64,000 nt of DNA from a virus: positions 1 through 64,000 of the IMG/VR virus record IMGVR_UViG_3300013212_000072; one strand, 5' to 3'. Positions within the stretch are counted from its first letter, which is position 1. Every line of letters starts with the position of its first letter. Below the pieces are notes generated by a model. The model searched no databases. It saw only the letters and a list, made by a program, of their open reading frames with translations, and was not told the DNA's origin. Positions 3,855 to 23,156 of the stretch are shown here, piece by piece. Position numbers and translations under genes: made by a program.

Positions 3855-4319
3855 ATGAAAAAAATTAAACTATTCGAACAATTCTTAAATGAATCTAAAT
3901 ATACAGGTTCATTATACCATGGAGGGGATGTTGATTTTAATAAACCAATGTACTTTACGAATAGTCCCATAATAGCACAATCGTATGGTAAGGTTACAGG
4001 GCCATACCAAATCACCTTTAATAAATTTGTTACCCTTGATTTCAGTACAGCTGAAGGTTGGTGGTTACCTGAAGAGGCCACCAAAAGTGAATGTAAAAAA
4101 TTCGGTATGAAACCCGAAGATTTTAATAAATACAAGCAATTTCCAGAAGTTAAATCAATAAAGACTGACCATTTTGTTAGAGCAGCCATAGATAAAGGAT
4201 TAGATGGAATAATCTTCCAAAATATCATGGATGCAGGAAGCCACCCAGTAAAAGGTGACAAATACATAAGAACGGATAATGTAGTTGCCTTAAAACCAAA
4301 AAAGTCCGTACTACTATGA
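3855..4319 (+). CDS. ADP-ribosyltransferase-fold-like (ART-PolyVal-like) protein with an N-terminal capsid-targeting-like peptide
   Basis: LYHG..., MYFT.....AQSYG and GLDGIIFQN pattern; N-terminus MKKIKLFEQFLNES. Confidence 0.5.
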   Translation: MKKIKLFEQFLNESKYTGSLYHGGDVDFNKPMYFTNSPIIAQSYGKVTGPYQITFNKFVTLDFSTAEGWWLPEEATKSECKKFGMKPEDFNKYKQFPEVKSIKTDHFVRAAIDKGLDGIIFQNIMDAGSHPVKGDKYIRTDNVVALKPKKSVLL

Positions 4320-4723
4320 AACCCGTAAAACTATTCGAACAATTCCTAAATGAATCCCAAAAACAAACCGAAGCCCTTCAAAAGGTAGAAGGACTTCTAA
4401 AGGGTTCTATATTTGATGATGCAAAACGAATAGACACTATCTTCAAAATGAACAAACGACCCTGTCACGAAATAGTAGCCACATGGGAACAGTACGGGGA
4501 TGCCGCCCAAACCAAAACCATTAACCCAACCGATATCCAAATCACTCAACCTAATATACAACTCAATAAGGTCAAGGAGATGATATTCAGGGACACTAAG
4601 GTTAAAACAATAAATGTAATCCAATTCCCAGAAGGACCTGTAATCTACGACGGACATCACAGACTTACAAAGGCATGGGCCCTAGGAGAAACCCGTTTAA
4701 AAGTAAACCTCTTAAAAGCATAA
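4316..4723 (+). CDS. ParB/Srx-like N-terminal domain protein with a capsid-targeting-like peptide
   Basis: ITQ..., IYDGHHRL..A motif; N-terminus MKPVKLFEQFLNES. Confidence 0.7.
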   Translation: MKPVKLFEQFLNESQKQTEALQKVEGLLKGSIFDDAKRIDTIFKMNKRPCHEIVATWEQYGDAAQTKTINPTDIQITQPNIQLNKVKEMIFRDTKVKTINVIQFPEGPVIYDGHHRLTKAWALGETRLKVNLLKA

Positions 4724-4730
4724 CCACACA

Positions 4731-4757
4731 GAGGACCCCTAAAGGTCCTCCCTTTTA
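4731..4757 (+). terminator. Intrinsic terminator
   Basis: GAGGACC/GGTCCTC stem followed by CCTTTT, just after the 4316-4723 stop. Confidence 0.6.
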
Positions 4758-5065
4758 TTCAGGTCCGGCACGTCCGGAATCCACCCCTCCCCCACAATAA
4801 AAAACCGATAGAAATAGTAATCTAAAACAAAAACATCCCAATCTCTATATAGATATACAGATACAAGAATAACAGTATAAGGATATAAACCCCCTATAAA
4901 GAATCCACCCCTCCTCCCTAACCCCCATACCTGTCCAGATTCTAAGCCCCTTATGGTCCTACCAACCCTCCCTAACCCCTTTCAATTCCCAGTCAACCAG
5001 GTACCCCAGTTCTACCCCTCTTATTAAAATGATATATAGTAGACCTTCAGGAGACCAAGGGCCCC

Positions 5066-5153
5066 TCAATGTTCCCTATAGGGCCAAGTCAATGTTCCCT
5101 ATAGGGCCAAGTCAATGGTTCCTCAATGGTTCCTCAATGTTCCCTATAGGGCC
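5066..5153. repeat. Tandem repeat with an internal palindrome
   Basis: TCAATGTTCCCTATAGGGCC(AAG) x3 (5066, 5089, 5134) interleaved with TCAATGGTTCC x2; core palindrome CCCTATAGGG. Confidence 0.9.
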
Positions 5154-5477
5154 TTAAACCTCTCGTCGAGTTGGGTCACCCTCCGAGGCACACCGGACCC
5201 TCTCTATGCCTTCAGGGCACTCTGGGCACCACTAAAATCAACCGCCAATCCCGTTACCCCTTGCCCCTGCGGGCAAAACAATTCTGCCTCAACCGGGCAT
5301 TGGTGCTACCATGGGACTGCACCCCCGCTGGTTGCAACCAACCACGGGTTATTGGTTACTATACAACCGACCCTACCGGTCCAACCGGTTCCCCTTGCCC
5401 CTGTTGTGAAAACAATTCCCTAAGGGCCGGCCAATAAATTTGCATTGGAAATCCGAAACTGCCAAGTCGGCAAACAC

Positions 5478-5504
5478 AAAAAACCCAGGCCACCACAACC
5501 TGGG
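5478..5504 (-). terminator. Intrinsic terminator for the RadA-like gene
   Basis: Minus strand reads CCCAGG-loop-CCTGGG-TTTTTT; it is nested in a larger inverted repeat CCGAAACTGCCA/TGGCAGTTTCGG. Confidence 0.65.
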
Positions 5505-5544
5505 AATCTCTATCTAATGGCAGTTTCGGGTGCCAGCCGGTATA

Positions 5545-6648
5545 TTATAGTTCTACCATCGTCTTTAATTCCTCAGGTACGGCATCCTTGTCGAAACCGA
5601 ATAACTTGTCGAAGGCGTTGGATTCTCCTGTTAGGGCTTTACGTTCTTCAGCCAGGACCTCGTCGTTAAATAGGTCCCTTGTATATCTTCCTTCGTCGAA
5701 TGTAACACCGTCTGATAATTCGAAATATAGTTTTTTACCGACCTGACCTGTACGGTTTTTAGAGAACTCCATGAATCTTCTACCACTATTTTCAGAACCG
5801 TCCCAGTCCAACATCATCATCGCGGTCGTCATGTGTTTTAGTTTATTAGAACCTACAAAGTTACCACCTTTACTGAGTTGCAGGATAGTTACGAAGGTTG
5901 TATATGTTTTCGTACTGTTACCACCTTTGTTATGCTGAGTCATTAGGTCTAGGAACCATTTTTCGGTTTTACCTCTGGTCATGTTACATTCCTCCTTAAT
6001 GGTATCGTTTACTTCGGTATATGAATCGGTAAGTACAACGTCCCATCCTTGAAGGAGTACACCTTCAATTACCCCTTTTGGACAAGATTCCGTATAGTCA
6101 GATAGGAATAGGATAGGTAATTGTCCCCAATGTGGGAAACGTTTAAGGTAACGGGCCATATCTATCTGGTTCATTTCGGCAGAGATGAACAGGACTCGTT
6201 TACCTTGAGCAGATAGTTTAGAAAGTAATTCTAATAGCACTGTAGTTTTACCGACACCAGGGGCTCCAGCAGCCATTATATTAGTTCCAGGTAGGAATCC
6301 ACCTTCAGTCGAACAAAACTGGTCAAAGACTGTTCCAGTTGGAAGGCTGGTAAATAGGGAATCATCGATATTTAAGTCGTCCAATTTGGTTAGTTGGACC
6401 TCAACTGGAGCGCAAGGGTTTTGGGATTGAACTGATGTTGAGGTCCCATAATCGTTATTATAGTCCTTATTACTTGTCCATCTACCAGTTTCGGTGATGT
6501 TGATAATACGGTTTTGGTCTTGGTTTTTAACCCAAGTATATTTTGAATGACCTGGCTCGATTAAGATAGTGTCAATTGGGTTTTTCGTGTTTACTAAAAC
6601 GATGAATTCGTTAGGTTGTGTGCGGATTAAGTAAGATTGTCTGTTCAT
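5545..6648 (-). CDS. RadA/Sms-like RecA-fold ATPase (no zinc finger, no Lon-like domain)
   Basis: Walker A GAPGVGKT, LFISAEM, Walker B VVLTDS, GSNKLKH, and KNRTG (compare RadA KNRFG). Confidence 0.75.
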   Translation of the reverse strand: MNRQSYLIRTQPNEFIVLVNTKNPIDTILIEPGHSKYTWVKNQDQNRIINITETGRWTSNKDYNNDYGTSTSVQSQNPCAPVEVQLTKLDDLNIDDSLFTSLPTGTVFDQFCSTEGGFLPGTNIMAAGAPGVGKTTVLLELLSKLSAQGKRVLFISAEMNQIDMARYLKRFPHWGQLPILFLSDYTESCPKGVIEGVLLQGWDVVLTDSYTEVNDTIKEECNMTRGKTEKWFLDLMTQHNKGGNSTKTYTTFVTILQLSKGGNFVGSNKLKHMTTAMMMLDWDGSENSGRRFMEFSKNRTGQVGKKLYFELSDGVTFDEGRYTRDLFNDEVLAEERKALTGESNAFDKLFGFDKDAVPEELKTMVEL

Positions 6649-10379: not shown

Positions 10380-11715
10380 CCCCCAGGAACAATCCCGGGA
10401 TCAATGCCCGGCTCAATGCCTAGAGGCAATATTCAATACAGGATCAATGCCCTCATGGGTTGAATATACCCTACAGACACAATATGCCTATAGGCACTCC
10501 AACGTGTACACCTATGATGCGCCAATCAACAGTTGCAATAGGCAATGCAGGTTGTTGCAGGTCAATGCAGGAGAGGTATCTGCACAAATAGCACCTATAG
10601 AGTCCTACTGATCCAGTGGCCTAGGCCCACCGGTAGGACCCTGTGAACCGAGGAGTTCTGGAGTGCCCCGCGCTCCCCTTCAATACCGGTGCCGATTAGA
10701 CACTACAGGGCCTGCGGGCCGGATCGCAAATAATTAAAAAGCCGGGTCTACGTTTTTTTGTAGGGCTCCAGGGAAGGGGTACATGACTCTCTAACACTCC
10801 TAACTAATATAGACCTTTGATAAATGTGTTTCACATAAGTGGACGAATTATCCCTGGCCGGGAATGGGTCCCCCCAAGCATTGAAGTACCCTCCCAGCCC
10901 AATGGCTCTCCGATGGTCCTCGAATGGTAGCCAATGGTCCATCCCGCCCTCAGAGTACTTCAATGTTGCCCCTACCCAAAAAATTATCCCGTCCGGAAGT
11001 GTCCAAAAATACCAATAAGAACCGATAGAACCGTTACCACCGTTACTAGATACACAGAGAACCTATAATTAACCAATAAGCGGGTTACCAATAAGGGATG
11101 GTTGGCTCAGATTGACCTGAGGGTACTGTGAAAATAAGGAGACCCCATTGAAACTAAAAGGCCCTATGAGGATATAAGAGGTGTCCAAGTCTCGAAGGTG
11201 AAAGGTACGGTGACTCACCCAACTCTCACCCATCTGAGGTACTCCAAACCCTCAAAGGTTCTCTAAGATCCCAAAAAATTCCTATAGAAACAAAAAAGAG
11301 TCCCTCCTATCCCATAAGGTCCCAAAGGGGCGGGGTGGGGGCGTGCTGTAGGGATTTTAAATAAGGAGAGAACTATAACAACATATAGAACTGGATATTT
11401 AAAAACCCCTATAGGGATACCGTCGTTATTAATAAAGGGTACTGGGAGGGACACACATTCTGATACCTCTATAAAGTGACTCAGTGGACTGTGACGGATA
11501 GCGCACAACAATGGGTATTAAGAAGGGCCGCCCAATGGTCCCTCAATGTAACTTTATGTATTTCAAACGGCCTCAACGGGTCAATCGTTCTGGTAGATTT
11601 TTTAGTTTTTTTTGCGATTGAAACCCAAATTTTCCCACGCAATAGGAGGGTGTGCTTGGGCCTGAATTAGAGAAATAAAAATTTTCACTCAACTCAAAGG
11701 TTCTTTAAGTCTACC
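10380..11715. other. GC-rich non-coding block with repeats (right)
   Basis: No credible ORF. Many CAAT(G) units, ACCAATAAG x3, an inverted repeat CATTGAAGTAC/GTACTTCAATG, and a G-run cluster at 11327-11353. Confidence 0.7.
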
Positions 11716-11718
11716 CTG

Positions 11719-11744
11719 AAACAAATTGGAATTACTCAATATAA
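11719..11744 (+). promoter_or_regulatory. Putative middle promoter AAAC-N16-RTATAA (representative copy)
   Basis: Identical spacing at 1896, 11719, 14049, 17229, 19320, 24241, 27230, 29900 and 30655, each directly upstream of a gene. Confidence 0.7.
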
Positions 11745-11762
11745 ATCTAAAATAAATATACT

Positions 11763-11963
11763 ATGTGGAAAACTAAAGAAACTGAAGTTAAAGGCCGTAA
11801 GGTCATATCGATGATTTGTCAGAACTCCGAACCGGAAAAGAGTAAATGGGCAGAATTTGGACCTGAAGATGGACCATGCGAGAACTGGACTGTTGTAAGT
11901 CCTGAAACTACTGCATCACTATGTCCTGAATGTGTGCAACGTTCTGTTAATAATATCAAATAA
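11763..11963 (+). CDS. Small putative Zn-binding protein
   Basis: 66 aa with C..C and CPEC. Confidence 0.6.
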   Translation: MWKTKETEVKGRKVISMICQNSEPEKSKWAEFGPEDGPCENWTVVSPETTASLCPECVQRSVNNIK

Positions 11964-12025: not shown

Positions 12026-13996
12026 ATGACCAAAAAAACAAATACTCCATTCATTGACCAATTCGGAGAGGACTTAACTAAACTAGCAGCGGATGGGAAA
12101 CTTGACCCTATCATCGGCCGAGAAAAAGAGGTCTATAGAATATGCCAAATCCTTTCTCGTAGAAAGAAAAATAATCCAATTATTTTAGGGGATCCTGGCG
12201 TCGGTAAAACTGCCCTAGTTGAAGCAATTGCCCAGCGAATTGTTGAAAAGAAAGTTGCAATGACTCTTCTTAATAAACGCATAATCGCGCTTAATATAGC
12301 AAACGTAGTTGCAGGTACAAAATACCGCGGAGAATTCGAGGAACGAATGAAAAATATTGTTGATGAACTTAAAGAAAACCCAGACGTTATTGTCTTTATT
12401 GATGAGATTCACACGATTGTAGGAGCTGGTGGTGTAAGTGGTTCATTAGATGCAAGTAATATCTTAAAACCTGCATTGGCAAGAGGACAAGTACAATGCA
12501 TTGGTGCTACAACAATCGATGAGTATCGTGAAAATATTGAAACAGATGGAGCCCTTACTCGAAGATTCCAAGAAATCTTTATAGACCCACCATCTCTTGA
12601 AGATGCAATTGAAATATTGGATAGAATCAAACCAAATTACGAAGACTTCCATTCGGTATCTTATACTCCTGATGCTATCAAAGCATGTGTAATGTTATCT
12701 GACCGATATATTACACAAAGAGAATTACCAGACAAAGCAATCGACACCATGGACGAGGCTGGAGCAAAAGTGCATTTAAAAGAGGTAAAAATTCCGGAAA
12801 TTATTAAAGAACTTGAAATTGAAGCCGATAAATTAAAATCCCAAAAATTAAAAGCAGCAGATTCTACTGATTATGAAAAAGCTGGGAAATTAAGAGACCT
12901 TGAAATAAGTAAGCGAGAAGATATATCAAAAAGAACCAAAGAATGGGAGGAGACTCTTAGACTAAATAAAAAAGCAGTAACTTATGAAGATATTGCTGAA
13001 GTAATTTCAGAATCTACAGGAATTCCAGTAACTAGAATGACTGATGACGAGAGCAGAATTGTTATTGATATGGAAAATGAATTAAAAGCCATGATTATCG
13101 GACAGGATACTGCGGTTGAAGGTCTATGTAGAGTTATTAAAAGAAGCCGAACTGGTGTAAGTTCATCTAAAAAACCTATTGGTTCATTTATGTTTATTGG
13201 ACCTACTGGAGTTGGTAAAACTGAAACTGTTAAAGCTCTTTCTGAATATTATTTTGGAAGCGAGGATTCTTTAATTAGAATTGACATGTCTGAATACCAA
13301 GAAAAATTTAATGTAAGTAGACTTATTGGTTCTCCTCCGGGATATGAAGGACATGAGGATGGTGGACAGTTAACAGAACAAGTCCGACGTAAACCGTATT
13401 CGGTAGTATTATTTGATGAGGTTGAAAAAGCACATCCAGATATTTTTAATGTCTTATTGCAGGTTTTGGATGAGGGTCGTTTAACTGATACTCTTGGTAG
13501 AACTATTGACTTTACAAATACTATTATTATTATGACAAGTAATGTTGGGGCAAAGCGAGTTGCAGAATTTGGAGCTGGAATTGGATTCTCAAGTTCAAGT
13601 TCTACTGCTACCCATAAAATGGAAATGGAAACAGTTATTAGAAAGGAACTAAAAAACAAATTTGCTCCAGAATTCTTAAATAGACTAGACGAAATAGTAT
13701 TATTTGACGGGTTAAAACAAGAAGACGTTGCTAAAATTGCAGAAATAGAAATTCAAAAGGTAATTGAAAGAATGGCTGAGCAAGAGTATACTATTAAAAT
13801 TGCAAAAACTGCAGTAGTATTTTTAGCAGAACATGGATATGATGCTCAATATGGTGCCAGACCTCTTAAAAGAGCAATTCAAACTTATGTTGAAGACCTA
13901 TTAGCTGATGGCATATTAGCTAAAGAAATTGTTAAAGGAAATAAAGCCTACACAATATCTCATAAAAAAGGAGATGAGAAACTTTCTGTAAAATAA
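12026..13996 (+). CDS. clpC: ClpC-type AAA+ unfoldase lacking the N-terminal Clp-repeat domain
   Basis: Two AAA modules (GDPGVGKT, GPTGVGKT), AGTKYRGEFEER, a UVR-like M-domain (DYEKAGKLRD) and the ClpP-docking IGF loop (GAGIGF). The protein begins directly at AAA1. Confidence 0.92.
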   Translation: MTKKTNTPFIDQFGEDLTKLAADGKLDPIIGREKEVYRICQILSRRKKNNPIILGDPGVGKTALVEAIAQRIVEKKVAMTLLNKRIIALNIANVVAGTKYRGEFEERMKNIVDELKENPDVIVFIDEIHTIVGAGGVSGSLDASNILKPALARGQVQCIGATTIDEYRENIETDGALTRRFQEIFIDPPSLEDAIEILDRIKPNYEDFHSVSYTPDAIKACVMLSDRYITQRELPDKAIDTMDEAGAKVHLKEVKIPEIIKELEIEADKLKSQKLKAADSTDYEKAGKLRDLEISKREDISKRTKEWEETLRLNKKAVTYEDIAEVISESTGIPVTRMTDDESRIVIDMENELKAMIIGQDTAVEGLCRVIKRSRTGVSSSKKPIGSFMFIGPTGVGKTETVKALSEYYFGSEDSLIRIDMSEYQEKFNVSRLIGSPPGYEGHEDGGQLTEQVRRKPYSVVLFDEVEKAHPDIFNVLLQVLDEGRLTDTLGRTIDFTNTIIIMTSNVGAKRVAEFGAGIGFSSSSSTATHKMEMETVIRKELKNKFAPEFLNRLDEIVLFDGLKQEDVAKIAEIEIQKVIERMAEQEYTIKIAKTAVVFLAEHGYDAQYGARPLKRAIQTYVEDLLADGILAKEIVKGNKAYTISHKKGDEKLSVK

Positions 13997-14100
13997 TCAT
14001 ATAATCTTTTGTAAAGAGAACAAATTACCATATTCTATTTTAATTAAGAAACTTTCACCATGGAACGAATATAAAGTACTAACTATTAATAATAAATAAA

Positions 14101-14952
14101 ATGAATGCCGCAGAAACACTTGTACAAATTATTAAAGATATTAAATTAAATAAATCAGATTCAAATCCAAGAGATTTAAAAGTTAAAGAATTAATGTATG
14201 GTAGTTATACTTTTAATCCTACTATGCCCATTATTAATACAATCTCAAGGCCATTCGATTTCCGCTATTTTGCCGGTGAATTAGCATGGTACCTTTATAA
14301 AGATACCAATATTGATTACATCAATAAATTTTCTGGATTCTGGAAAAACATAACAAATCCTGGAACAAACGAAATTAATTCAAATTACGGTTCTCTTCTT
14401 TTCGGAGAACAATTACAATGGGTAGTCGATTCTCTTAAAGCAGACAAGAACACTAGACAAGCAATTGCTTTCTTAAATCAGCCAAAATACCAGTTTAAAG
14501 GTAATAAAGATTTTGTATGTACTATGTACTTAAACTTTTCAATCAGAAACAATAAGTTAGATATGAAAGTTCAAATGCGTTCTAATGATATATTCTATGG
14601 ACTTACGTTTGATGCCCCTTTCTTTGCATTTGTACATCAACATGTTTATCTTTGGTTAAAGTCAATTTACCCAGAATTAGAACTTGGAGTATACCATCAC
14701 TATTCCGATAACATTCACTTTTACGAAAGACATTTTGAATTAGCTGAAAAAATCGTTATGGAGCCTCTCCATGAGAAACAATACACAATGAAATTAACGG
14801 AACCAATTTTCAATATTGAAAATGGTGCAATGAAATTAACTAAATGCGGAGTTTCGATGATAAATAACATAAATTTTGCAATCAATAATGAATTGCCTAA
14901 AGAAAAGTATATTAACATATTATCTGAATATCTTAATATACAAGAATTATGA
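14101..14952 (+). CDS. Thymidylate-synthase-fold enzyme, Asp-type (dCMP hydroxymethylase/methylase-like)
   Basis: NSNYG, TRQA, catalytic Cys (DFVCT), MRSNDIFYGLTFD and NIHFYERH. Confidence 0.8.
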   Translation: MNAAETLVQIIKDIKLNKSDSNPRDLKVKELMYGSYTFNPTMPIINTISRPFDFRYFAGELAWYLYKDTNIDYINKFSGFWKNITNPGTNEINSNYGSLLFGEQLQWVVDSLKADKNTRQAIAFLNQPKYQFKGNKDFVCTMYLNFSIRNNKLDMKVQMRSNDIFYGLTFDAPFFAFVHQHVYLWLKSIYPELELGVYHHYSDNIHFYERHFELAEKIVMEPLHEKQYTMKLTEPIFNIENGAMKLTKCGVSMINNINFAINNELPKEKYINILSEYLNIQEL

Positions 14953-15254
14953 TTGAGTGTATGAAAACCAGATTAAATATTCCGGAATTCTATATAGATG
15001 GAAAGAATTTTGAATCAATTAAAAATGATTCTGAATTCCACGATAGAATTGTCGATTTTATCGAGATGAATCTTAAAAAAGAATGCGAAGATACTTTACT
15101 CTGTTATTTTGTTTATGAAAATGGAGCTATACAATATGCAGATCTTCCAAAAAGCTCGTACAAACAATCAATATTAAAAAGCTTGGAATTCTATACCTTT
15201 CATGAAAAATATGAAAGATGCGCACAAATTAAAAAACTATTAAAGAAACTATAA
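14949..15254 (+). CDS. UVR-motif small protein 1
   Basis: C-terminal EKYERCAQIKKLL; its stop overlaps the clpP ATG. Confidence 0.65.
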   Translation: MIECMKTRLNIPEFYIDGKNFESIKNDSEFHDRIVDFIEMNLKKECEDTLLCYFVYENGAIQYADLPKSSYKQSILKSLEFYTFHEKYERCAQIKKLLKKL

Positions 15255-15940
15255 TGAATCACGGAAAAGAATTCGAAAGATACGCAATGCTAGACAAGGG
15301 CATAAGTTCAATGAACATGCATTACTATAAAAACCAAATTGAATCTTCAATGACACCTTATATCCTAGAAGAGAGGCAATTGAGAGCTACTCAAATGGAT
15401 ATTTTCTCAAGGTTAATGATGGATAGATTATTATGGGTTGCAGGACCTGTTAATGACAATATGTCTACGATAGTACAAGCTCAATTGATGTTTTTAGATA
15501 GTACCGATGACCGAGATATAACTATGCATATTGATAGTCCTGGAGGTTCTGTAAAATCAGGGCTTTCTATGGTTGATGTTATGGAATGGATTAAATCCGA
15601 TATCAAAACTGTAAATACAGGAATGGCTGCTTCGATGGGTTCAGTATTATTAGGTGCTGGAACTAAAGGCAAGAGAAGTTCATTAAGACACTCGACTACT
15701 ATGTTACACCAATCTTCAGGAGGATTCAGCGGAAATATACAAGATGCTGAAATAGACTGGGCAGAATGGCAAAAAGTAAATAAAGAACTTTTTAATTTAT
15801 TAGGAGCTTATTGTGATAAAAAACCTGAACAAGTAATGGCCGATGCTACTAGAGATTTATGGTTAAGCGCAGAAGAAGCACTTAAATATGGTATAATTGA
15901 CGAGATTATTAATCCTGTTAAATCAAAATCTAGAAAATAA
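15254..15940 (+). CDS. clpP: ATP-dependent Clp protease proteolytic subunit
   Basis: DIFSRLMMDR, IDSPGG, catalytic AASMG, MLHQ and RDLWL. Confidence 0.95.
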   Translation: MNHGKEFERYAMLDKGISSMNMHYYKNQIESSMTPYILEERQLRATQMDIFSRLMMDRLLWVAGPVNDNMSTIVQAQLMFLDSTDDRDITMHIDSPGGSVKSGLSMVDVMEWIKSDIKTVNTGMAASMGSVLLGAGTKGKRSSLRHSTTMLHQSSGGFSGNIQDAEIDWAEWQKVNKELFNLLGAYCDKKPEQVMADATRDLWLSAEEALKYGIIDEIINPVKSKSRK

Positions 15941-16138
15941 ATGAAAATTCATTTTTACATACATGAAGGAGAACTTGAATACTTAGATAAAATAATTAAA
16001 GGAAAATTAGATGCAGAGCTATATCCAATTACAATATCCCCAACCTACTTTAAAGATTCATACTTAATAGATATTTCCTACTCTGATTTTGTAAGATTAA
16101 ACGATAAAAATACATTTATTTCATTAATTTCATTATGA
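15941..16138 (+). CDS. Hypothetical protein
   Basis: 65 aa, coupled in the operon. Confidence 0.6.
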   Translation: MKIHFYIHEGELEYLDKIIKGKLDAELYPITISPTYFKDSYLIDISYSDFVRLNDKNTFISLISL

Positions 16139-16446
16139 CAAACCGAGAAAAACAAAGAGAACTTTTTGTTGAATTGATTAACTATCAACTTAAAGACCAT
16201 GGAGTAACATACGAAGATGTTAAAACCAATCCATCATGGTATATGGATTATAAAACTACTCCAGAGAAAGAAGAGGCATTTATTAAATATTCTGTGGAAA
16301 GAATACGAGAAGTGCTTAAAATATCAAAAGTTGCTGCTGAAAAAGAAGCAAGTTGGTTTATTCTACAGTGGGGATTAACTACTATTAATCCTAGAAAAAC
16401 TACAAGCAAAGTACAAAGTAATGTTAACAAAAGAACTAAGTCTTAG
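16135..16446 (+). CDS. Hypothetical protein
   Basis: 103 aa, coupled in the operon. Confidence 0.65.
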   Translation: MTNREKQRELFVELINYQLKDHGVTYEDVKTNPSWYMDYKTTPEKEEAFIKYSVERIREVLKISKVAAEKEASWFILQWGLTTINPRKTTSKVQSNVNKRTKS

Positions 16447-16507
16447 ATTATAGTAATATAAACAAAAAATACCTATATAATTTAGTATACTTGAGATAGA
16501 TATAGGT

Positions 16508-17209
16508 ATGAATGTCTTTGCACCAAATTGGCTAACAGAGCCGCCTCATGACTATGAGTTAAAATATTACAAGCTACTTGCTGGAATCGATAAAATTAAA
16601 AAAATGATTTCTGCCAATAGCTTGTATTCTGCTATTTTAGAAGTAGAGACCGAACTTGAAAAACTATACAATATTAAATACGGAAAAGACGAAATTGAAA
16701 GCAAAACCAGAATAATTACTGGAATTGATGTTGATACAATGTCTTTAAAATATGAATATCCAGAAGAAATTGATGGCGTCAACTCAATGTATGATGTTTG
16801 TGACACTGCAATTGAAAAACTAGAAGACCTATACCGAATTATTAGAGATAAATGGAGACTAGTTGAATCACAGTGCACTATTACCGAGATTCCAGAGAAA
16901 AAGCACCTCAATACTAAAGGGTACATTTTTTATATCGATATAATAAATCAAAAAATTCACGTCTATTCTTATATAGAACCTTCATCTTTTAAAATAAATT
17001 GGAGTGAGTTTAATTTAAAGAAAGTTGAAGAGCTAGAAAATTCAACCAAAGAGATTTCTGAGTTTATTAAAAAAATAGAATTAGAAAGTACTTCTTACAG
17101 ATTTTTTAGGTTTGATACAAAATTTAAAACTGCGCTACCTCCATATAATGATTGTATGTTACCAATAATGAAGAGCATGTTGTTTAACCGAATCAAACAC
17201 GGCATCTAA
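16508..17209 (+). CDS. Hypothetical protein
   Basis: 233 aa ORF preceded by GATAGATA and a hairpin covering the start codon. Confidence 0.7.
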   Translation: MNVFAPNWLTEPPHDYELKYYKLLAGIDKIKKMISANSLYSAILEVETELEKLYNIKYGKDEIESKTRIITGIDVDTMSLKYEYPEEIDGVNSMYDVCDTAIEKLEDLYRIIRDKWRLVESQCTITEIPEKKHLNTKGYIFYIDIINQKIHVYSYIEPSSFKINWSEFNLKKVEELENSTKEISEFIKKIELESTSYRFFRFDTKFKTALPPYNDCMLPIMKSMLFNRIKHGI

Positions 17210-17259
17210 ATAAATACTAAAAATATATAAACTAATTTTATTTTTATAATATAATTAGT

Positions 17260-19110
17260 ATGAAAATTAATATAATAACTCGAGCTACTCGTCTGCAAAA
17301 TTTAAAGACTGTTAAAGAATCTGTTTTTAATAATATTCCAAGCGGATGTGAAATTAATTGGCACTTAGTATTTGACACTAAAAATCTTAAAGATATTGAT
17401 GCAGAATTACTATGTGATTTAAAAGATGATTCAACAACATATCATTTTGAAAAGGGAGACTCCATAGGAATGTTATATCCTCAATGTTCTGATATAATTT
17501 CAAAATTTGGAGAAGGTTGGGTTTATTTTTTAGATGATGACAATATTATTCATGAAGGTTTCTATGAATATGTTTTACAATCTTCATTAGAGAATCCAGA
17601 CAAAAAAGTTCATGTGGTTTCGCAGAATGTCGCAGGAAAGGATTTTACCAACTTAACATATAGAAAGGCAGCTCCTAAATATACAAAAGTACAGTGTATA
17701 GATTTAGCACAATATATCGTTAATACCGAAGTTTACAATAAATACGGATATAAATATTTACCTGACTATCGAGCAGATGGAATCCTTATAGGAACTATCC
17801 ACGCAGAACATCCTGAGTGGTTTACATTTACTGAATTAACATTATCACACTACAACTATCTCCAGAAAAACGCAAAAGCAAAACTTCCTAAAGTATTATA
17901 TATTGGTGATGATGAACCTGAATTAAAATCACTTAAAATACTAGATTACGAGGATGATAGTCTAGAGATTAAATACTTAAAGAATGATAATGATATTGCA
18001 ATATCATTAGCTTCATTTAAACCAGATGTTATTATAACCAGAGGGAAATCTTGGGAAGATTTCCCGGAAATGGCAAGCATGTCACTTCAATTTAGACGAA
18101 AATGGTTAAATCTTGACAAAGAAATTTCTATTGGAGATGTTGGACAAACTGCGTATCAATGTTCAATGGAAAGTATGTTGAACCCAGATGGATTAGAAGA
18201 TAGTTCAATGATTTCATACTTTACCCCAATATACAATACTGGTGAAAAACTATTCAATACGTATCAATCCTTACTAGACCAAACATACGGTAATTGGGAA
18301 TGGGTATTAGTAAATGATTCTTCCGATGGTGGAAAAACATTAAAAATAGCAGAATCTATTGCAGCAAAAGACCCAAGAGTACGTCTTTATGATTTTAGAG
18401 AAAAAAGCGGTGGAAATATTGGTGAGGTTAAATGGAGATGCTGTGTAATGGCTAAAGGTTTTATTTTAGCTGAATTAGACCATGATGATTTATTAGTTCC
18501 ATGGTGTACTGAAGATCTTTATAAAGCAGCTAAAAAACACCCAGAAGCCGGATTCTTTTTTAATGATACCGTTGAAGTTGATGAGAACTGGAATTCTTTA
18601 ACCTATCCAGAAGGATTTGCGCTCGGATACGGATCATATAGAAAAGAAGAGTATGCTGGACAGATAATGAATGTTTCTAATCAACAGAATATTAATCCAA
18701 AAACAATTAGACATATAGTTGGCGTACCAAATCATGTAAGAGCATGGAGACGATCTACATATTTTGAAGTCGGAGGACATAATAGAAGTCTTGTAATAGC
18801 CGACGATTATGAGTTGGTTGTGAGAACGTTCTTAAAAGCAATAACTTGTAAAATACCAAAATTAGGATACGTTCAATTCTTATACAATAATGCGAATGGA
18901 CAAAACACGCACAATTTATCTAGAGCAGATATCCAAAGGCGTGTAAGAACAATAAGTTATTATTATAACGAACAGATTAAAAATAGATTTGAAGAATTAG
19001 GATTAAAAGATTGGGCGCATGAAGAATGTCCATGGGCTCCTTTAAATACTGTCTCAAGATTTGGTCAAGAAGAGATGGCAGCAAATATAATATACAACGA
19101 AAATGAATAA
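17260..19110 (+). CDS. Two-domain GT-A (GT2-like) glycosyltransferase
   Basis: N-domain with YFLDDDN; C-domain with FTPIYN, EWVLVND.S.DG, AELDHDD and ADDYEL. Confidence 0.85.
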   Translation: MKINIITRATRLQNLKTVKESVFNNIPSGCEINWHLVFDTKNLKDIDAELLCDLKDDSTTYHFEKGDSIGMLYPQCSDIISKFGEGWVYFLDDDNIIHEGFYEYVLQSSLENPDKKVHVVSQNVAGKDFTNLTYRKAAPKYTKVQCIDLAQYIVNTEVYNKYGYKYLPDYRADGILIGTIHAEHPEWFTFTELTLSHYNYLQKNAKAKLPKVLYIGDDEPELKSLKILDYEDDSLEIKYLKNDNDIAISLASFKPDVIITRGKSWEDFPEMASMSLQFRRKWLNLDKEISIGDVGQTAYQCSMESMLNPDGLEDSSMISYFTPIYNTGEKLFNTYQSLLDQTYGNWEWVLVNDSSDGGKTLKIAESIAAKDPRVRLYDFREKSGGNIGEVKWRCCVMAKGFILAELDHDDLLVPWCTEDLYKAAKKHPEAGFFFNDTVEVDENWNSLTYPEGFALGYGSYRKEEYAGQIMNVSNQQNINPKTIRHIVGVPNHVRAWRRSTYFEVGGHNRSLVIADDYELVVRTFLKAITCKIPKLGYVQFLYNNANGQNTHNLSRADIQRRVRTISYYYNEQIKNRFEELGLKDWAHEECPWAPLNTVSRFGQEEMAANIIYNENE

Positions 19111-19321
19111 TACTTACGTAAAAATATGGGTTCATAATAGAGAATCTGACTTAATGATGGATTTCTTATTAGATAGAGTTGCTGAGCCTCCTCACTATAT
19201 AATTGACTATAAAGAAGTACCCAAATCCATTACAGGTGGATGGATCGAAATGACAATATCTTATGATAGGTACCTTAAACTTCGGCAGTCTCATGACCAT
19301 GTAGATACTACGCATCTTTAA
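19103..19321 (+). CDS. Hypothetical protein (weakly resembles 15941-16138)
   Basis: 72 aa; both proteins begin KI(W/H).. and contain ISY...RL/KL. Confidence 0.55.
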   Translation: MNNTYVKIWVHNRESDLMMDFLLDRVAEPPHYIIDYKEVPKSITGGWIEMTISYDRYLKLRQSHDHVDTTHL

Positions 19322-19352
19322 ACTTTTTTATTTTCTTGTGTATAATTAGTAT

Positions 19353-19601
19353 ATGGCAAAAAATATAAAAGAACCCAAAGTATATGTGGTTAAACCAAAG
19401 GTTGGAGAAAACTATTATTTTAAATTTGCGGGGAGTATTATGCATGGTGAATTAGTTTCCTTAAACGAAGCACTAACTAAATTGCATGGAATTCCACACT
19501 ATTGGATGAATGAAAAGTCAGACAGAAGTGTAAAAAAATGCGTATACCCAATATCGATTTATAAGATTTTTAAAGATTTAAACGACTCAAGATATGTATA
19601 A
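19353..19601 (+). CDS. Hypothetical protein
   Basis: 82 aa ORF behind a middle-type promoter. Confidence 0.6.
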   Translation: MAKNIKEPKVYVVKPKVGENYYFKFAGSIMHGELVSLNEALTKLHGIPHYWMNEKSDRSVKKCVYPISIYKIFKDLNDSRYV

Positions 19602-20325
19602 CACTAGCGAATTAAAGTCAATGTTATTTATTGACATTGAAACCTCTTCAGAATACCCAAATTACGAAGAATTTTGTATTAAAAGGCCAGGCGCCATAAA
19701 GCATTGGGCTAAAAAAGCAGAACAGCACAGAAATACTGAATCGCATTTAGTAAAACTTACCGATGCAGAAATGTATACTCACATGTCGGCACTTAGTCCA
19801 GAATTTAGTAAGGTTATTGTAATTTCTATGGGACAAATTAAATTCCAAGATGGTATTACAACCTCAAAAATTCGTTCTTTCTATAAGGGTAGTGAAACGG
19901 AAATTCTTAAAGAGTTTATGGGTACTGCTCAAGCTGTTTTTAATCAAAGTCCTTCAGTTCAATTTACTGGACATAATATTAAAAACTTTGATTTTCCATA
20001 TCTAATAAAAAGATCCATTGTAAATGGAGTAGCTATACCTCATCAATTTCATTTACAAAAGAAAAAACCTTGGGAAAACTGTCTTGTAGATACTTATGAA
20101 ATTTGGAAATTTGCAGGTTGGAATAGCGCATCATTAGATTTAATTTGTGACACTCTTAATATTCCATCTCCTAAAACTATAATGGAGGCAAGTAGTACTA
20201 CTGAAGAATATTGGAATGGTAATATTGAAAAAATAAAAACGTACTGCGAAGGAGATGTTAAAGCAACAATGAATGTGATGCTTAAAATATCAGGGATGGA
20301 TATGGTTGATGAGGTACCATTTTAA
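19594..20325 (+). CDS. DEDD 3'-5' exonuclease (PolB-exonuclease-like)
   Basis: FIDIET, GHNIKNFDFPY, SLD and YCEGDV motifs. Confidence 0.85.
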   Translation: MYNTSELKSMLFIDIETSSEYPNYEEFCIKRPGAIKHWAKKAEQHRNTESHLVKLTDAEMYTHMSALSPEFSKVIVISMGQIKFQDGITTSKIRSFYKGSETEILKEFMGTAQAVFNQSPSVQFTGHNIKNFDFPYLIKRSIVNGVAIPHQFHLQKKKPWENCLVDTYEIWKFAGWNSASLDLICDTLNIPSPKTIMEASSTTEEYWNGNIEKIKTYCEGDVKATMNVMLKISGMDMVDEVPF

Positions 20326-20408
20326 ATTGTTAATAACTTTTTGATAAAAAGTTTTACCGTGTCAAGAATTTGTATTATATTTACATATCAAATTAAAACC
20401 TTATAATC
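20325..20408 (+). promoter_or_regulatory. Repeated early promoter (dispersed copy)
   Basis: AATTGTTAATAACTTT...ATTATATTTACATATCAAATTAAAAC. Confidence 0.75.
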
Positions 20409-20702
20409 ATGGACGAAGACTTTAACAATTTATTTGAAGAACAAGAAAACGAAATCGACACTATTAAAAAAGAAGCCGAAATGAATAACGTAATGTATGA
20501 TTTGAAAATCAAACTTGCAAATGAAAATTATGAATCAATAATTTCTAAAGGGGTTGATTTTAAATTAATGGAAAAACAAGAAATCGATATTAGACCCATT
20601 GTTAAAATACTGGGAGATATGTTAGAACTTTTTGAAGAACGCGAAGAGTACGAAAAATGCGCAAAAATAAATAAGATACTTAAGAAAGCAAAGGTCCTAT
20701 AG
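20409..20702 (+). CDS. UVR-motif small protein 2
   Basis: C-terminal FEEREEYEKCAKINKIL. Confidence 0.7.
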   Translation: MDEDFNNLFEEQENEIDTIKKEAEMNNVMYDLKIKLANENYESIISKGVDFKLMEKQEIDIRPIVKILGDMLELFEEREEYEKCAKINKILKKAKVL

Positions 20703-20716
20703 GACCTTTTTTTTTT
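20690..20716 (+). terminator. Intrinsic terminator
   Basis: AAAGGTCCTATAGGACCTTT palindrome followed by poly-T. Confidence 0.8.
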
Positions 20717-20747
20717 AATATATAATGTACTAATAAAGTATATCGAT

Positions 20748-20957
20748 ATGAACGAAGAATTATTAAAAAAGATTGCAGATAGTCTGGAAAGAATTGCAAT
20801 TTGCATGGAAAACAAACAGCTAAGAGAAATTGCGACTTATAGAAAAGGTCAAGCTTCATTAATTGCCGAGAAAAAAGAAGCTAGCAAGAATCAGGTAAAA
20901 TCTGCTCCGATTCCTATAGTAAAGCAGACGGTTAGAGTTAGAAATTCTAAAAAATAA
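20748..20957 (+). CDS. Hypothetical protein
   Basis: 69 aa with LKKIADSLERIA. Confidence 0.6.
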   Translation: MNEELLKKIADSLERIAICMENKQLREIATYRKGQASLIAEKKEASKNQVKSAPIPIVKQTVRVRNSKK

Positions 20958-20963
20958 ACTCTA

Positions 20964-21791
20964 ATGAATTATTACGAAACTCTTAATGTTTCAAAGAATG
21001 CTACTCCTGAAGAGATTAAAAAATCTTATAGGAAACTTGTAAAAGAGCATCACCCTGACAAAACAGGGGGAGACGACACACAATTCAAAAAAATATCTGA
21101 AGCATACGAAACTCTTTCTGACTCTGTCAAAAAAGAGCAGTATGATAATCCATCTAGAGGACATAATCCTTTTAACAATTTCCATGGATATCAAGATACA
21201 TCAAATCCATTTGCGCACGCCTTTCGAGGATTTGGTGGAGATTTTGCTGATATGTTTAATCAATCGTTTGGCGGAGAAGCAAGAGGATCTGACGTTAGAG
21301 TTATGCTCAACATAACTCTTGAAGAATCTTATGATGGTTCGAGAAAATATATTGATGTTGGTACTGGTGGATTTAATATCAATATACCTCGAGGAATTTT
21401 GAATGGAACAAAACTTAAAATTCCAGGTAAAGGAGCTAACCATCCTGTAAATTCATCTGCACCTCCAGGCGATATTATTCTAATTGTCAATGTTTTACCA
21501 GACCCTGAACTTATTGTTAACGGTAGTGATATTTATGTTGATTTAAACTTAAGTTGGATTGACATCTTGCTTGGAGGAGAATTTGAAATTCGTACCAAAC
21601 TAAAGTCTATTAAAATAAAAGTTCCTCAAGGTTCTCATGAGTCACAATTGCTGCGAGTAGTTGGGCAAGGAATGCCAATATATAATTCAGAAGGATTCGG
21701 AAATCTTATGGTAAAATTAAGAACTCTTCCTATAACTTTAACCGAACCCGAAATAGAATTACTTAAAAAGATAAAAAATCAAAATGAGTAG
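20964..21791 (+). CDS. dnaJ: DnaJ/CbpA-type co-chaperone (class B, no zinc finger)
   Basis: J-domain with HPD, a G/F linker and a C-terminal domain (GDI.L, G.GMP). Confidence 0.9.
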   Translation: MNYYETLNVSKNATPEEIKKSYRKLVKEHHPDKTGGDDTQFKKISEAYETLSDSVKKEQYDNPSRGHNPFNNFHGYQDTSNPFAHAFRGFGGDFADMFNQSFGGEARGSDVRVMLNITLEESYDGSRKYIDVGTGGFNINIPRGILNGTKLKIPGKGANHPVNSSAPPGDIILIVNVLPDPELIVNGSDIYVDLNLSWIDILLGGEFEIRTKLKSIKIKVPQGSHESQLLRVVGQGMPIYNSEGFGNLMVKLRTLPITLTEPEIELLKKIKNQNE

Positions 21792-22038
21792 CATTGAAGA
21801 AAGCCCGGAAGAATCAAGAAAATTTATAAAAAAACTACACGAAGCATCCAAAGAAGATATGATGGATGTTATGTACTCTTCTATTGTCAATGGTAAAATG
21901 GGAGCATTAAAGCACGATGGAACCATTGAAGAAAAAATAGAAGGAGTAAAAACGGTTCTTAATTTCTTTAAAGATAAAGAAGATTATGAAAAATGTAAAG
22001 AACTCAAAAAAATAATCGAAAAGTTGTCAATAATATAA
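21784..22038 (+). CDS. UVR-motif small protein 3
   Basis: C-terminal FKDKEDYEKCKELKKII. Confidence 0.7.
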   Translation: MSSIEESPEESRKFIKKLHEASKEDMMDVMYSSIVNGKMGALKHDGTIEEKIEGVKTVLNFFKDKEDYEKCKELKKIIEKLSII

Positions 22039-22132
22039 TATAGTAACCTTTTTAGCCCGGTTATATTAAAAGTGCTTAGCTAAAAATATATATTATATGT
22101 GGCTATAGCCACTTTAAAAACATTAAGGCAAG

Positions 22133-22390
22133 ATGGGAGATATTACAGGGGAGGAAAGAGATTCTCTGATGAGGTCCAGCTACTATATACTTACTAGAAA
22201 TTTTACTAAAACCATTAATAGATTTGTTGTTTATAATGATGGTAATCACACAATCGATATTCCACATGGAATCGGACAGCGAAGCAAATTCGTAGATGTC
22301 CTAATAGAATATTTCGTTGAGTTAGAGGAATATGAAAAATGCGATTCGCTCAAGAAATTAAAAGAACTAGTCATAATGACTGGTGATTAA
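22133..22390 (+). CDS. UVR-motif small protein 4
   Basis: C-terminal YFVELEEYEKCDSLKKL. Confidence 0.7.
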   Translation: MGDITGEERDSLMRSSYYILTRNFTKTINRFVVYNDGNHTIDIPHGIGQRSKFVDVLIEYFVELEEYEKCDSLKKLKELVIMTGD

Positions 22391-22406
22391 ATATATACAA
22401 ATTTGT

Positions 22407-23156
22407 ATGCAAAAAAGAACAGTGGAAAGTAAATCAAAAACAACTAAAGCAAAACCCACAACTACTAAAAATCCAATTGGACGTCCTAAAAAAACAGTAG
22501 TAAAAGAATTAGATTTAGTAGGAGTACAATTAAAGCCGTCTCAATATGATTATTTTGAAAAAATTAAAAAAAATGAAATAACATTCTGTTCTGGTCCTGC
22601 TGGAACTTCAAAAACATTTACGGCATGTTATACTTCCCTATGGTTGCTAGCAACAAAAGGAGTTTCAAAAATTATTTTATGTAAACCAATTCAAGAATCC
22701 GGAGAAAAACTTGGATTCCTACCTGGAGATATTGCAGACAAGGTTGACCCTTACATGCAATCATATATTTCAAATTTTAAAAAAATAGTAGGTGATGAAT
22801 TAACCGAAGGTTTAATTGCTTCAGGTGCTATTGAATTTAAGCCACTTGCATTTATGAGGGGTGATACATTTGATGATGCGTTTATGATTCTAGATGAAGC
22901 GCAAAATGCTCCATGGAATGCTCTTATACTATTTATTACTAGAATGGGTAAAAATTCTAAAGTACTAGTATCTGGAGATATAAGTCAGTATGATATTGCA
23001 AAAGATAAGGTAACATTTCATAAATTCATAGAAATGTATAAACCAGTACATGGTGTTGGAGTTCATGAGTTTGGGATTAAAGACATTGTGCGTGCAAAAA
23101 TATTACAAGAAATTGTAAGCATTTATGATAAATGGAAATCCGATAATAATCTTTAA
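22407..23156 (+). CDS. phoH: PhoH-family ATPase with a replacement C-terminus
   Basis: GPAGTSKT, LGFLPGD, FMRG.TF, ILDEAQN and GDISQYD. The ATG at 22407 is preferred over the GTG at 22383. Confidence 0.92.
   Translation: MQKRTVESKSKTTKAKPTTTKNPIGRPKKTVVKELDLVGVQLKPSQYDYFEKIKKNEITFCSGPAGTSKTFTACYTSLWLLATKGVSKIILCKPIQESGEKLGFLPGDIADKVDPYMQSYISNFKKIVGDELTEGLIASGAIEFKPLAFMRGDTFDDAFMILDEAQNAPWNALILFITRMGKNSKVLVSGDISQYDIAKDKVTFHKFIEMYKPVHGVGVHEFGIKDIVRAKILQEIVSIYDKWKSDNNL

Follow-up and report, generated by a model that had tools for sequence, protein, structure and literature searches.

How might a phage control a ClpC-ClpP protease whose unfoldase has lost the N-terminal domain? The question is raised by a 64,000-nucleotide stretch of viral DNA (positions 1 to 64,000 of IMG/VR record IMGVR_UViG_3300013212_000072; hereafter, the window), in which a block at positions 12,026-22,390 encodes a ClpC-type AAA+ unfoldase without an N-domain, a ClpP peptidase, a DnaJ-type co-chaperone and four small proteins, here called A, B, C and D, that share a C-terminal motif. 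The first-pass annotation of this DNA took the four proteins to be modular adaptors that dock on ClpC through a UVR-type helix. Our analysis favors, tentatively and at somewhat less than even confidence, a narrower reading: a phage ClpC-ClpP and DnaJ locus carrying four paralogs of a viral hairpin family, of which only A is a credible partner of ClpC. A UVR-like hairpin thus remains plausible and A remains a candidate ClpC partner, but the four-member adaptor set is supported neither by co-occurrence with Clp genes nor by the paralogy of the proteins themselves.

The phage ClpC contains the Pfam domains AAA, AAA_lid_9, UVR, AAA_2 and ClpB_D2-small, and Clp_N is absent. Its match to PHROG 4871 begins at profile position 168 of 764, its alignment with Bacillus subtilis ClpC (3j3s; phmmer, 731 bits) runs gap-free from B. 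subtilis residue 157, and no Clp_N open reading frame (ORF) lies in the 1.4 kb upstream of clpC. The M-domain matches Pfam UVR (PF02151; curated cut-off 21.5 bits) at residues 267-295 with 23.8 bits, and at nucleotides 12821-12913 with 29.3 bits in a six-frame scan of the contig in which it was the sole match. The M-domain tip residue Y283 (nucleotides 12872-12874) aligns without gaps with F436 of ClpC, and an IGF ClpP-docking loop (residues 519-521, nucleotides ~13580-13588) lies opposite the VGF of B. subtilis ClpC. In ClpP, the GMAASMG, MLHQSSGG and ATRDLW segments align with the Ser, His and Asp motifs of the solved ClpP 1y7o. These comparisons uphold what had been proposed for the protease at first pass, namely the missing N-domain, the UVR-type M-domain, the IGF loop and an intact ClpP triad. 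The phage ClpP also has an N-terminal extension of ~30 residues relative to solved ClpPs (the alignment begins at residue 30), which could be a propeptide.

Every relative of the window ClpC likewise begins at AAA1. ClpCs without an N-domain are found in three huge uncultured phages of 484-642 kb, LR745206.1 (L305; 701 aa), LR756502.1 (L306; 707 aa) and LR756508.1 (L308; 657 aa); the natural occurrence of such proteins in several huge phages therefore makes them a recurring phage feature. By contrast, the ClpC of a Staphylococcus phage is a complete, 813-residue version. In two of the three huge-phage proteins, a short acidic N-terminal tail of ~40 residues replaces the N-domain.

The four small proteins are defined by their common C-terminus. 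In six frames of the whole 81,298-bp contig, both the strict motif and a looser core, E-x-[YF]-E-[KR]-C, occur exactly four times, compared with 0.02 motif copies in shuffles, and every copy sits at the C-terminus of A, B, C or D. The reading frame of A shares 4 nt with the stop of a thymidylate-synthase-like (thyA-like) gene and 1 nt with the clpP start; there are 8-nt overlaps between C and the end of dnaJ and between D and the GTG start called for phoH. Both the set of four motif-bearing ORFs and the overlaps with clpP and dnaJ, as originally described, are therefore confirmed. The shared C-terminus is supported as a helical hairpin by two confident AlphaFold2 (AF2) models. The model of A (predicted local distance difference test score, pLDDT, 86.7; predicted template modeling score, pTM, 0.79) has a beta-alpha-beta-beta arrangement followed by helices 68-84 and 88-100, and that of C (pLDDT 83.4, pTM 0.68) has helices 8-35, 48-64 and 68-83. 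In both models the hairpin packs onto the protein's own N-terminal helix or small domain.

Each of the four proteins has its own orthologs, and in the diverged locus L007 the whole block is syntenic, with all four keeping the motif while the remainder drifts. Profile-profile comparison of the ortholog groups shows that the module is common to all four. B, C and D additionally align with each other over 64-67 columns at hhalign probabilities of 98-99% (99.2% over 65 columns for C and D), and their N-terminal parts alone align weakly (P 0.0007-0.003). By these profile alignments, B, C and D are full-length paralogs, and a distinct N-terminal part is present in A only. The earlier description of “unrelated N-termini” consequently holds for A and fails for the other three and, because B, C and D are paralogous over their full length, the idea that a variable N-terminus selects the substrate is weakened. 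Searches of Pfam, PHROG and PDB sequences returned no match of the four proteins to a known adaptor (MecA, McsB, ClpS, SspB etc.), and no homologs of MecA, McsB or ClpS were seen in the block. Known adaptor folds are absent among the listed Foldseek and VIA-align matches for A and C, which leave room for unlisted families.

Is the hairpin a UVR motif? Its sequence features suggest that it is probably a diverged UVR-type hairpin, in which the R-D pair has been lost and Cys has been fixed where UVR has Ala. Helix 2 of A-D reads Y-E-[KR]-C-[AKD]-x-[IL]-[KN]-K, compared with the UVR signature [FY]-E-x-A-A-x-[LI]-R-D, so that the aromatic-Glu and the small residue are retained and the R-D pair is absent. 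The predicted hairpin length in the models of A and C, ~35 residues, is that of UVR. When a module profile built from 274 sequences is aligned with UVR by hhalign, 34 columns pair in the predicted register (YEKCA over FE-AA) with P 0.018 and a probability of 2.6%; the score of 12.9 exceeds all 200 column-permuted controls (maximum 12.0). A link between the two is provided by L046, which carries the module's helix 1 plus R-D in helix 2: its score is 37.9 bits against the module profile and, just above the cut-off, 21.6 bits against Pfam UVR. L046 is 47% identical over 94 residues (E 1e-26) to L077, which has a K-K tail like that of the window proteins. Two ClpC-type M-domains, those of L231 (Pfam-confirmed) and L247 (by sequence context), also have the heptad EEYEKCA at the homologous position, as do L260 and L265, which are McsA-like in combining an N-terminal zinc finger with a C-terminal UVR. 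The nearest named cluster in the ESM Atlas is viral, ~100 aa long and has UVR in 57% of its members (score 0.85, a lead only). The aromatic residue of the motif corresponds to F436 of ClpC, an M-domain tip contact (PMC12583610), and to Y283 in the phage ClpC. The first-pass proposal to check the four proteins against UVR thus comes out divided, with no direct Pfam match on one side and, on the other, the L046/L077 intermediates and an hhalign alignment in the predicted register.

Set beside the known UVR elements (the UvrB C-terminus, UvrC, the ClpC M-domain and McsA-type proteins), the family shares a helical hairpin of ~35 residues, an aromatic-Glu-x-small-Ala pattern at the start of helix 2 and the same hydrophobic spacing in helix 1, and some of its members reach or approach the Pfam cut-off. 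It differs in having mostly K-K or x-K in place of the helix 2 R-D, an invariant Cys for the UVR Ala and an acidic E-E ahead of the Tyr; moreover, A-D score nothing on UVR profiles, and the modeled hairpin packs on the protein's own N-terminal part. Tetratricopeptide (TPR)-like repeats are a second point of resemblance, as they have [YF]-[DE]-x-A at a helix start, and the best VIA-align matches include TPR proteins (Z 5.0-5.5). However, the phage module is a single hairpin with no repeat array, a weak Pfam TPR match occurs in only 1 of 132 members, and family members of the R-D type match UVR.

The family marked by this hairpin is large and is found almost entirely in viral sequences. Searched against 1.84 billion representatives at E <= 0.001, the module profile recovers 615 clusters (50% identity), almost all of them of proteins under 240 aa; lengths among the best 150 of the 615 run from 43 to 235 aa, and the module lies at the C-terminal end or close to it. 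The near-invariant E-E-Y-E-K-C tip lies in an arrangement of helix, three-residue turn and second helix. Neither Pfam nor PHROGs covers the family, and searches with subfamily representatives gave nothing useful; among 132 diverse members searched against Pfam at E <= 10, UVR fell outside the 25 most recurrent families. A few members have unrelated N-terminal domains, with one weak-to-good Pfam match each to Bac_DNA_binding and NDK. No fused forms were found at 413-2000 aa, which is weak evidence. In bacterial and archaeal assemblies, 23 of 120 pattern matches were true modules, mostly on contigs of metagenome-assembled genomes (MAGs) of Bacteroidales or Flavobacteriales. A subfamily of 141-194 aa (L155, L160, L200, L217 and similar) combines an N-terminal region resembling a coiled coil with a conserved H-P-[YF] segment directly before the module; it occurs on bacterially binned contigs (Bacteroidales and other MAGs) and belongs to no Pfam or PHROG family.

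We sampled carriers of the module in IMG/VR with an exact back-translated DNA pattern for EEYEKCA; 109 of the 122 matches listed were true modules, and all carrier counts given here refer to the matches listed. The co-occurrence set comprised 50 carrier records of at least 20 kb, mostly fragments, of which five were near-complete (56-181 kb). A ClpC-type AAA_2 domain was present in one of the 50 records (G012, an apparent relative of the window phage), ClpP in two and DnaJ in three, and none of the three proteins was present in any of the five near-complete records, which carry one or two module copies each. Numerous unrelated viral contigs, 20-180 kb in length, are among the carriers. With ClpC and ClpP both absent from most carrier phages, the family is not a dedicated adaptor set for phage ClpC, and the expectation that it would be distributed together with phage ClpC was not borne out: carriage is largely independent of it. 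DnaJ as a better-linked partner is likewise rejected at the level of the family by these counts. A separate observation concerns G032 (L082, at ~53.9-54.3 kb of the contig), a 69-kb fragment on which ClpC was not found and on which a B-type hairpin gene lies directly upstream of dnaJ on the same strand, as in the window.

Against this background, A alone is linked to clpC and clpP by a conserved gene order. The order clpC, thyA-like gene, A, clpP can be read directly in the window and in the related loci L007 and L024. Starts and stops in this cassette overlap in the window and are separated by a few bases at most in L007 and L024, over comparisons in which ClpC identity drops to 70% (L024) and that of A to ~30%. 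By match coordinates, the more distant G012 has four module copies, one of them between clpC and clpP, and G008-G010 have a copy ~1.1 kb downstream of clpC. In relatives of 234-236 kb the copy number is exactly four, and none lies farther than ~11 kb downstream of clpC; the four-copy state is limited to the ClpC-bearing lineage among the records counted. Since the hairpin family is common in phages without Clp genes, only the clpP-adjacent copy is credible as a partner of the protease; nothing ties B, C or D to ClpC. The A cassette is confined to one lineage and so counts as one evolutionary event, and the Clp link of A, as read from gene order, is suggestive.

A possible role for A comes from work on Staphylococcus aureus ClpC from which the N-domain was removed (delta-N ClpC). 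This construct shows elevated ATPase activity and ClpP binding (Jenne et al. 2025, PMC12583610). Its hexamers form head-to-head ring dimers through M-domain contacts that require F436, and these dimers build ClpC/ClpP rods without proteolytic activity; adding F436A to delta-N ClpC yields an active protease (PMC12583610). The phage protein and the construct share a starting point. By analogy, the M-domain tips of a phage ClpC without an N-domain would be expected to hold it in inactive head-to-head ring dimers and, given the Tyr at the F436 position, the protein should need a tip blocker. The hairpin is probably a protein-docking element that would pair with another helical hairpin. That of A, with the same [FY]-E-K-[AC] tip, could cap the ClpC M-domain, and capping would release active ClpC-ClpP hexamers or, alternatively, keep the protease off. 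B, C and D would more likely apply their hairpins to other partners, such as host proteins bearing UVR or each other. A bolder version, which we consider rather unlikely, would make A an M-domain-tip mimic and a new class of Clp regulator that breaks ClpC dimers and activates the phage protease without an N-domain adaptor, with the wider EEYEKC family acting as a general phage set of hairpin decoys for host machines that bear UVR, such as ClpC, McsA and UvrB/UvrC.

In its two AAA+ rings, short M-domain, aromatic tip and ClpP-docking loop, the phage protein resembles the ClpC of B. subtilis and S. aureus ClpC-ClpP. It differs from those proteins, which have MecA as an adaptor, in that its N-domain is naturally missing, which leaves N-domain-binding adaptors and phospho-arginine tags without a site of action. 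Its tip residue is Tyr rather than Phe. McsA offers a second comparison: it is a small protein with zinc fingers and a C-terminal UVR-type hairpin that acts in the ClpC pathway. A-D are similarly small with a C-terminal UVR-like hairpin, and the McsA look-alikes L260 and L265 share their heptad; unlike McsA, the phage proteins have neither a zinc-finger region nor an McsB partner. Binding to the M-domain tip is not, to our knowledge, an established mode of action of McsA.

The original proposal extends the partnership to all four proteins, whose UVR helices would dock on phage or host ClpC while each variable N-terminus picks a substrate for timed degradation. The clustering of the four copies within ~11 kb of clpC, clpP and dnaJ in genomes of ~235 kb fits this, as do the resemblance of the hairpin tip to the ClpC M-domain tip and the presence of a promoter-like motif and terminator of its own at B. 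A host target may also exist, since open frames of ~850 aa in Bacteroidota genomes match UVR in a motif context like that of ClpC M-domains and presumably encode ClpC. However, B, C and D are not one tag placed on unrelated heads, tandem duplication accounts for the clustering of C and D, carriers are mostly without ClpC or ClpP, and known adaptor folds are missing from the listed matches; we judge a four-member adaptor set quite improbable. The same carrier counts, with one to three module copies in near-complete phages that have no ClpC, ClpP or DnaJ, lend more weight to the possibility that the hairpin has nothing to do with Clp and is a generic dimerization or docking element of small phage host-takeover proteins, its position in the window being inherited synteny. 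The 615 clusters, nearly all of small proteins and spread over many unrelated viral contigs, the members with unrelated N-terminal domains, and structure searches that return generic helical and TPR-like arrangements only are all consistent with such an element. It accounts less well for the persistence of A beside clpC and clpP over deep divergence with frames overlapping or abutting, for a tip sequence that matches UVR motifs specifically, including those of ClpC-system proteins, or for the restriction of the four-copy state, among the records counted, to the lineage with ClpC. We regard a generic element as a possible, if doubtful, explanation.

Less probable still than the four-member adaptor set is a target in nucleotide excision repair, with the hairpins pairing with the UVR of the host UvrB C-terminus or UvrC and blocking repair attack on possibly hypermodified phage DNA. 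Contact between UvrB and UvrC is mediated by UVR hairpins, and the near-universality of UvrB would account for carriage by phages without Clp genes; the translational coupling of A to the thyA-like gene, with a glycosyltransferase nearby, would fit DNA modification. On the other hand, the module does not have the R-D pair conserved in the UvrB and UvrC motifs, and no repair genes were linked to it in any locus examined.

Several observations also weigh against our preferred reading, in which A acts on ClpC. The UVR link is transitive and suggestive, resting on a motif of ~35 residues: A, B, C and D have no Pfam UVR match at E <= 1; on a hidden Markov model built from 17 genuine UVR domains they score 0.3-1.8 bits, equal to shuffled controls; and PDB sequence searches with full-length and module-only profiles returned noise only, with no UvrB, UvrC, ClpC or McsA. 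At the level of structure, Foldseek found no significant PDB match (best E 0.74 for A and 1.8 for C), and a wide VIA-align search with the model of A gave generic helical matches throughout (best Z 5.9). No co-occurrence of the family with phage ClpC, ClpP or DnaJ was seen. Most of the other phage ClpCs without an N-domain lack an adjacent module copy: the one good copy in LR756502 is 285 kb away from its ClpC, LR745206 yields weak matches only, and LR756508 has none. Finally, the coupling of A to clpP is no tighter than its coupling to the thyA-like gene, and the position of A may mirror block synteny in one lineage rather than function.

Table 1. Features of the ClpC-ClpP-DnaJ block and of the promoter-like element, in window coordinates
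Feature	Position	Strand	Basis
ClpC-type double-ring AAA+ unfoldase without N-domain, 656 aa	12026..13996	+	Pfam, PHROG, PF02151 scan, alignment to 3j3s
Thymidylate-synthase-like protein, 283 aa	14101..14952	+	Pfam Thymidylat_synt 61.9 bits (weak); PHROG thymidylate synthase families
Small protein A, 101 aa; hairpin module residues ~66-101 (nt 15144-15251)	14949..15254	+	ORF list, AF2
ClpP peptidase, 228 aa, Ser-His-Asp triad	15254..15940	+	Pfam CLP_protease 190.7 bits, profile positions 5-180 of 182
TATATTTACA, promoter-like element, 24-33 nt upstream of B ATG	20376..20385	+	Conserved before B orthologs, including distant L034
Small protein B, 97 aa; hairpin module residues ~59-97 (nt 20583-20699)	20409..20702	+	ORF list, motif scan
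DnaJ-type co-chaperone, 275 aa, J domain and DnaJ C-terminal domain	20964..21791	+	Pfam DnaJ 81.2 bits, DnaJ_C 103.1 bits
Small protein C, 84 aa, all-helical; hairpin module residues 48-83 (nt 21925-22032)	21784..22038	+	ORF list, AF2
Small protein D, 85 aa; hairpin module residues ~49-85 (nt 22277-22387)	22133..22390	+	ORF list, motif scan
PhoH-like ATPase, downstream boundary of the block	22383..23156	+	Pfam PhoH 202.4 bits
TATATTTACA exact copies	6671, 6926, 7226, 8742, 8942	-	Exact match
TATATTTACA exact copies	9063, 20376, 26093, 40442, 42399	+	Exact match

The source contig, of which the window is the first 64 kb, has a CheckV completeness of 28%. Its close relatives reach 234-236 kb at estimated completeness of 77-87%, in support of the “jumbo phage” label given to it earlier. 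The closest relatives of a baseplate-wedge protein are encoded by huge uncultured phages, Lak phages that infect Prevotella and jumbo phages of Tenacibaculum, from which the host is likely a member of the Bacteroidota. Megablast searches with the locus and two carrier contigs and a tblastn search with B found no cultured phage relative, so the host assignment stays inferred.

On the + strand, the block runs clpC, thyA-like gene, A, clpP, a stretch of unknown genes with a glycosyltransferase and a PolB-type exonuclease, B, dnaJ, C, D and phoH, so that dnaJ is flanked by the genes for B, C and D. The thyA-like gene is the second gene of the cassette, in the identical position in L007 and L024. 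A family-2 glycosyltransferase of 616 aa is encoded at 17260-19110 in the same block and, together with the thyA-like gene, we infer that it would fit base hydroxymethylation plus glycosylation of the phage DNA.

Directly 5' of clpC lies a stretch of ~1 kb (10740-11762) with no ORF above 100 aa on either strand. Its GC content is 0.42-0.61 against 0.31 for the genome, and it contains many short CCAATGG and CGATGG repeats. DNA identity is 71-81% in at least eight relatives, with invariant blocks alternating with indel-rich parts; the corresponding gap is much shorter in L007. Two possibilities for this stretch are a structured RNA, which is supported neither by Rfam (no match) nor by RNAalifold (no covariation support), and a binding region of the iteron type. 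The stretch is followed, directly upstream of clpC, by a 66-aa Cys-rich ORF (11763-11963) with four Cys in zinc-ribbon-like spacing and no Pfam match, which is kept at the equivalent site in L007 (2126-2341) and not in L024. Another GC-rich patch (0.435) lies at 4000-6000 of the window.

At B, the transcription signals bear out part of the claim that this gene has its own early promoter. The sigma-70-like site before B is the best of the region; site counts match shuffles (64 vs 60.5), and a sigma-70-type promoter is rejected on geometry, as the -10 hexamer abuts the ATG. The conserved TATATTTACA element is a better candidate and is probably a phage promoter element, judging from its recurrence and placement. 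The window holds 10 exact copies, compared with a chance expectation of 1-2 estimated from base composition, and several stand at a similar distance, 23-33 nt upstream of start codons; copies with one mismatch are not enriched over shuffles (24 vs 20.8). Many copies fall in the divergently transcribed region at 5.5-9.1 kb. A terminator-like hairpin at 20690-20709 overlaps the B stop codon and, because of this hairpin and the conserved element, B looks like a separate transcription unit. A promoter of its own is thus credible for B, but its early timing is unsupported.

If A does bind the M-domain tip, the phage system would parallel in nature the engineered delta-N ClpC and F436A variants, with A activating ClpC by a route that bypasses the N-domain, and it would bear on how ClpC is controlled and on how phages reshape the host proteome. 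The naturally N-domain-less ClpC merits characterization in its own right. Beyond this locus, the hairpin marks more than 600 clusters of small, almost exclusively viral proteins that carry no Pfam or PHROG annotation, and the UVR link gives this family a concrete starting hypothesis about its partners.

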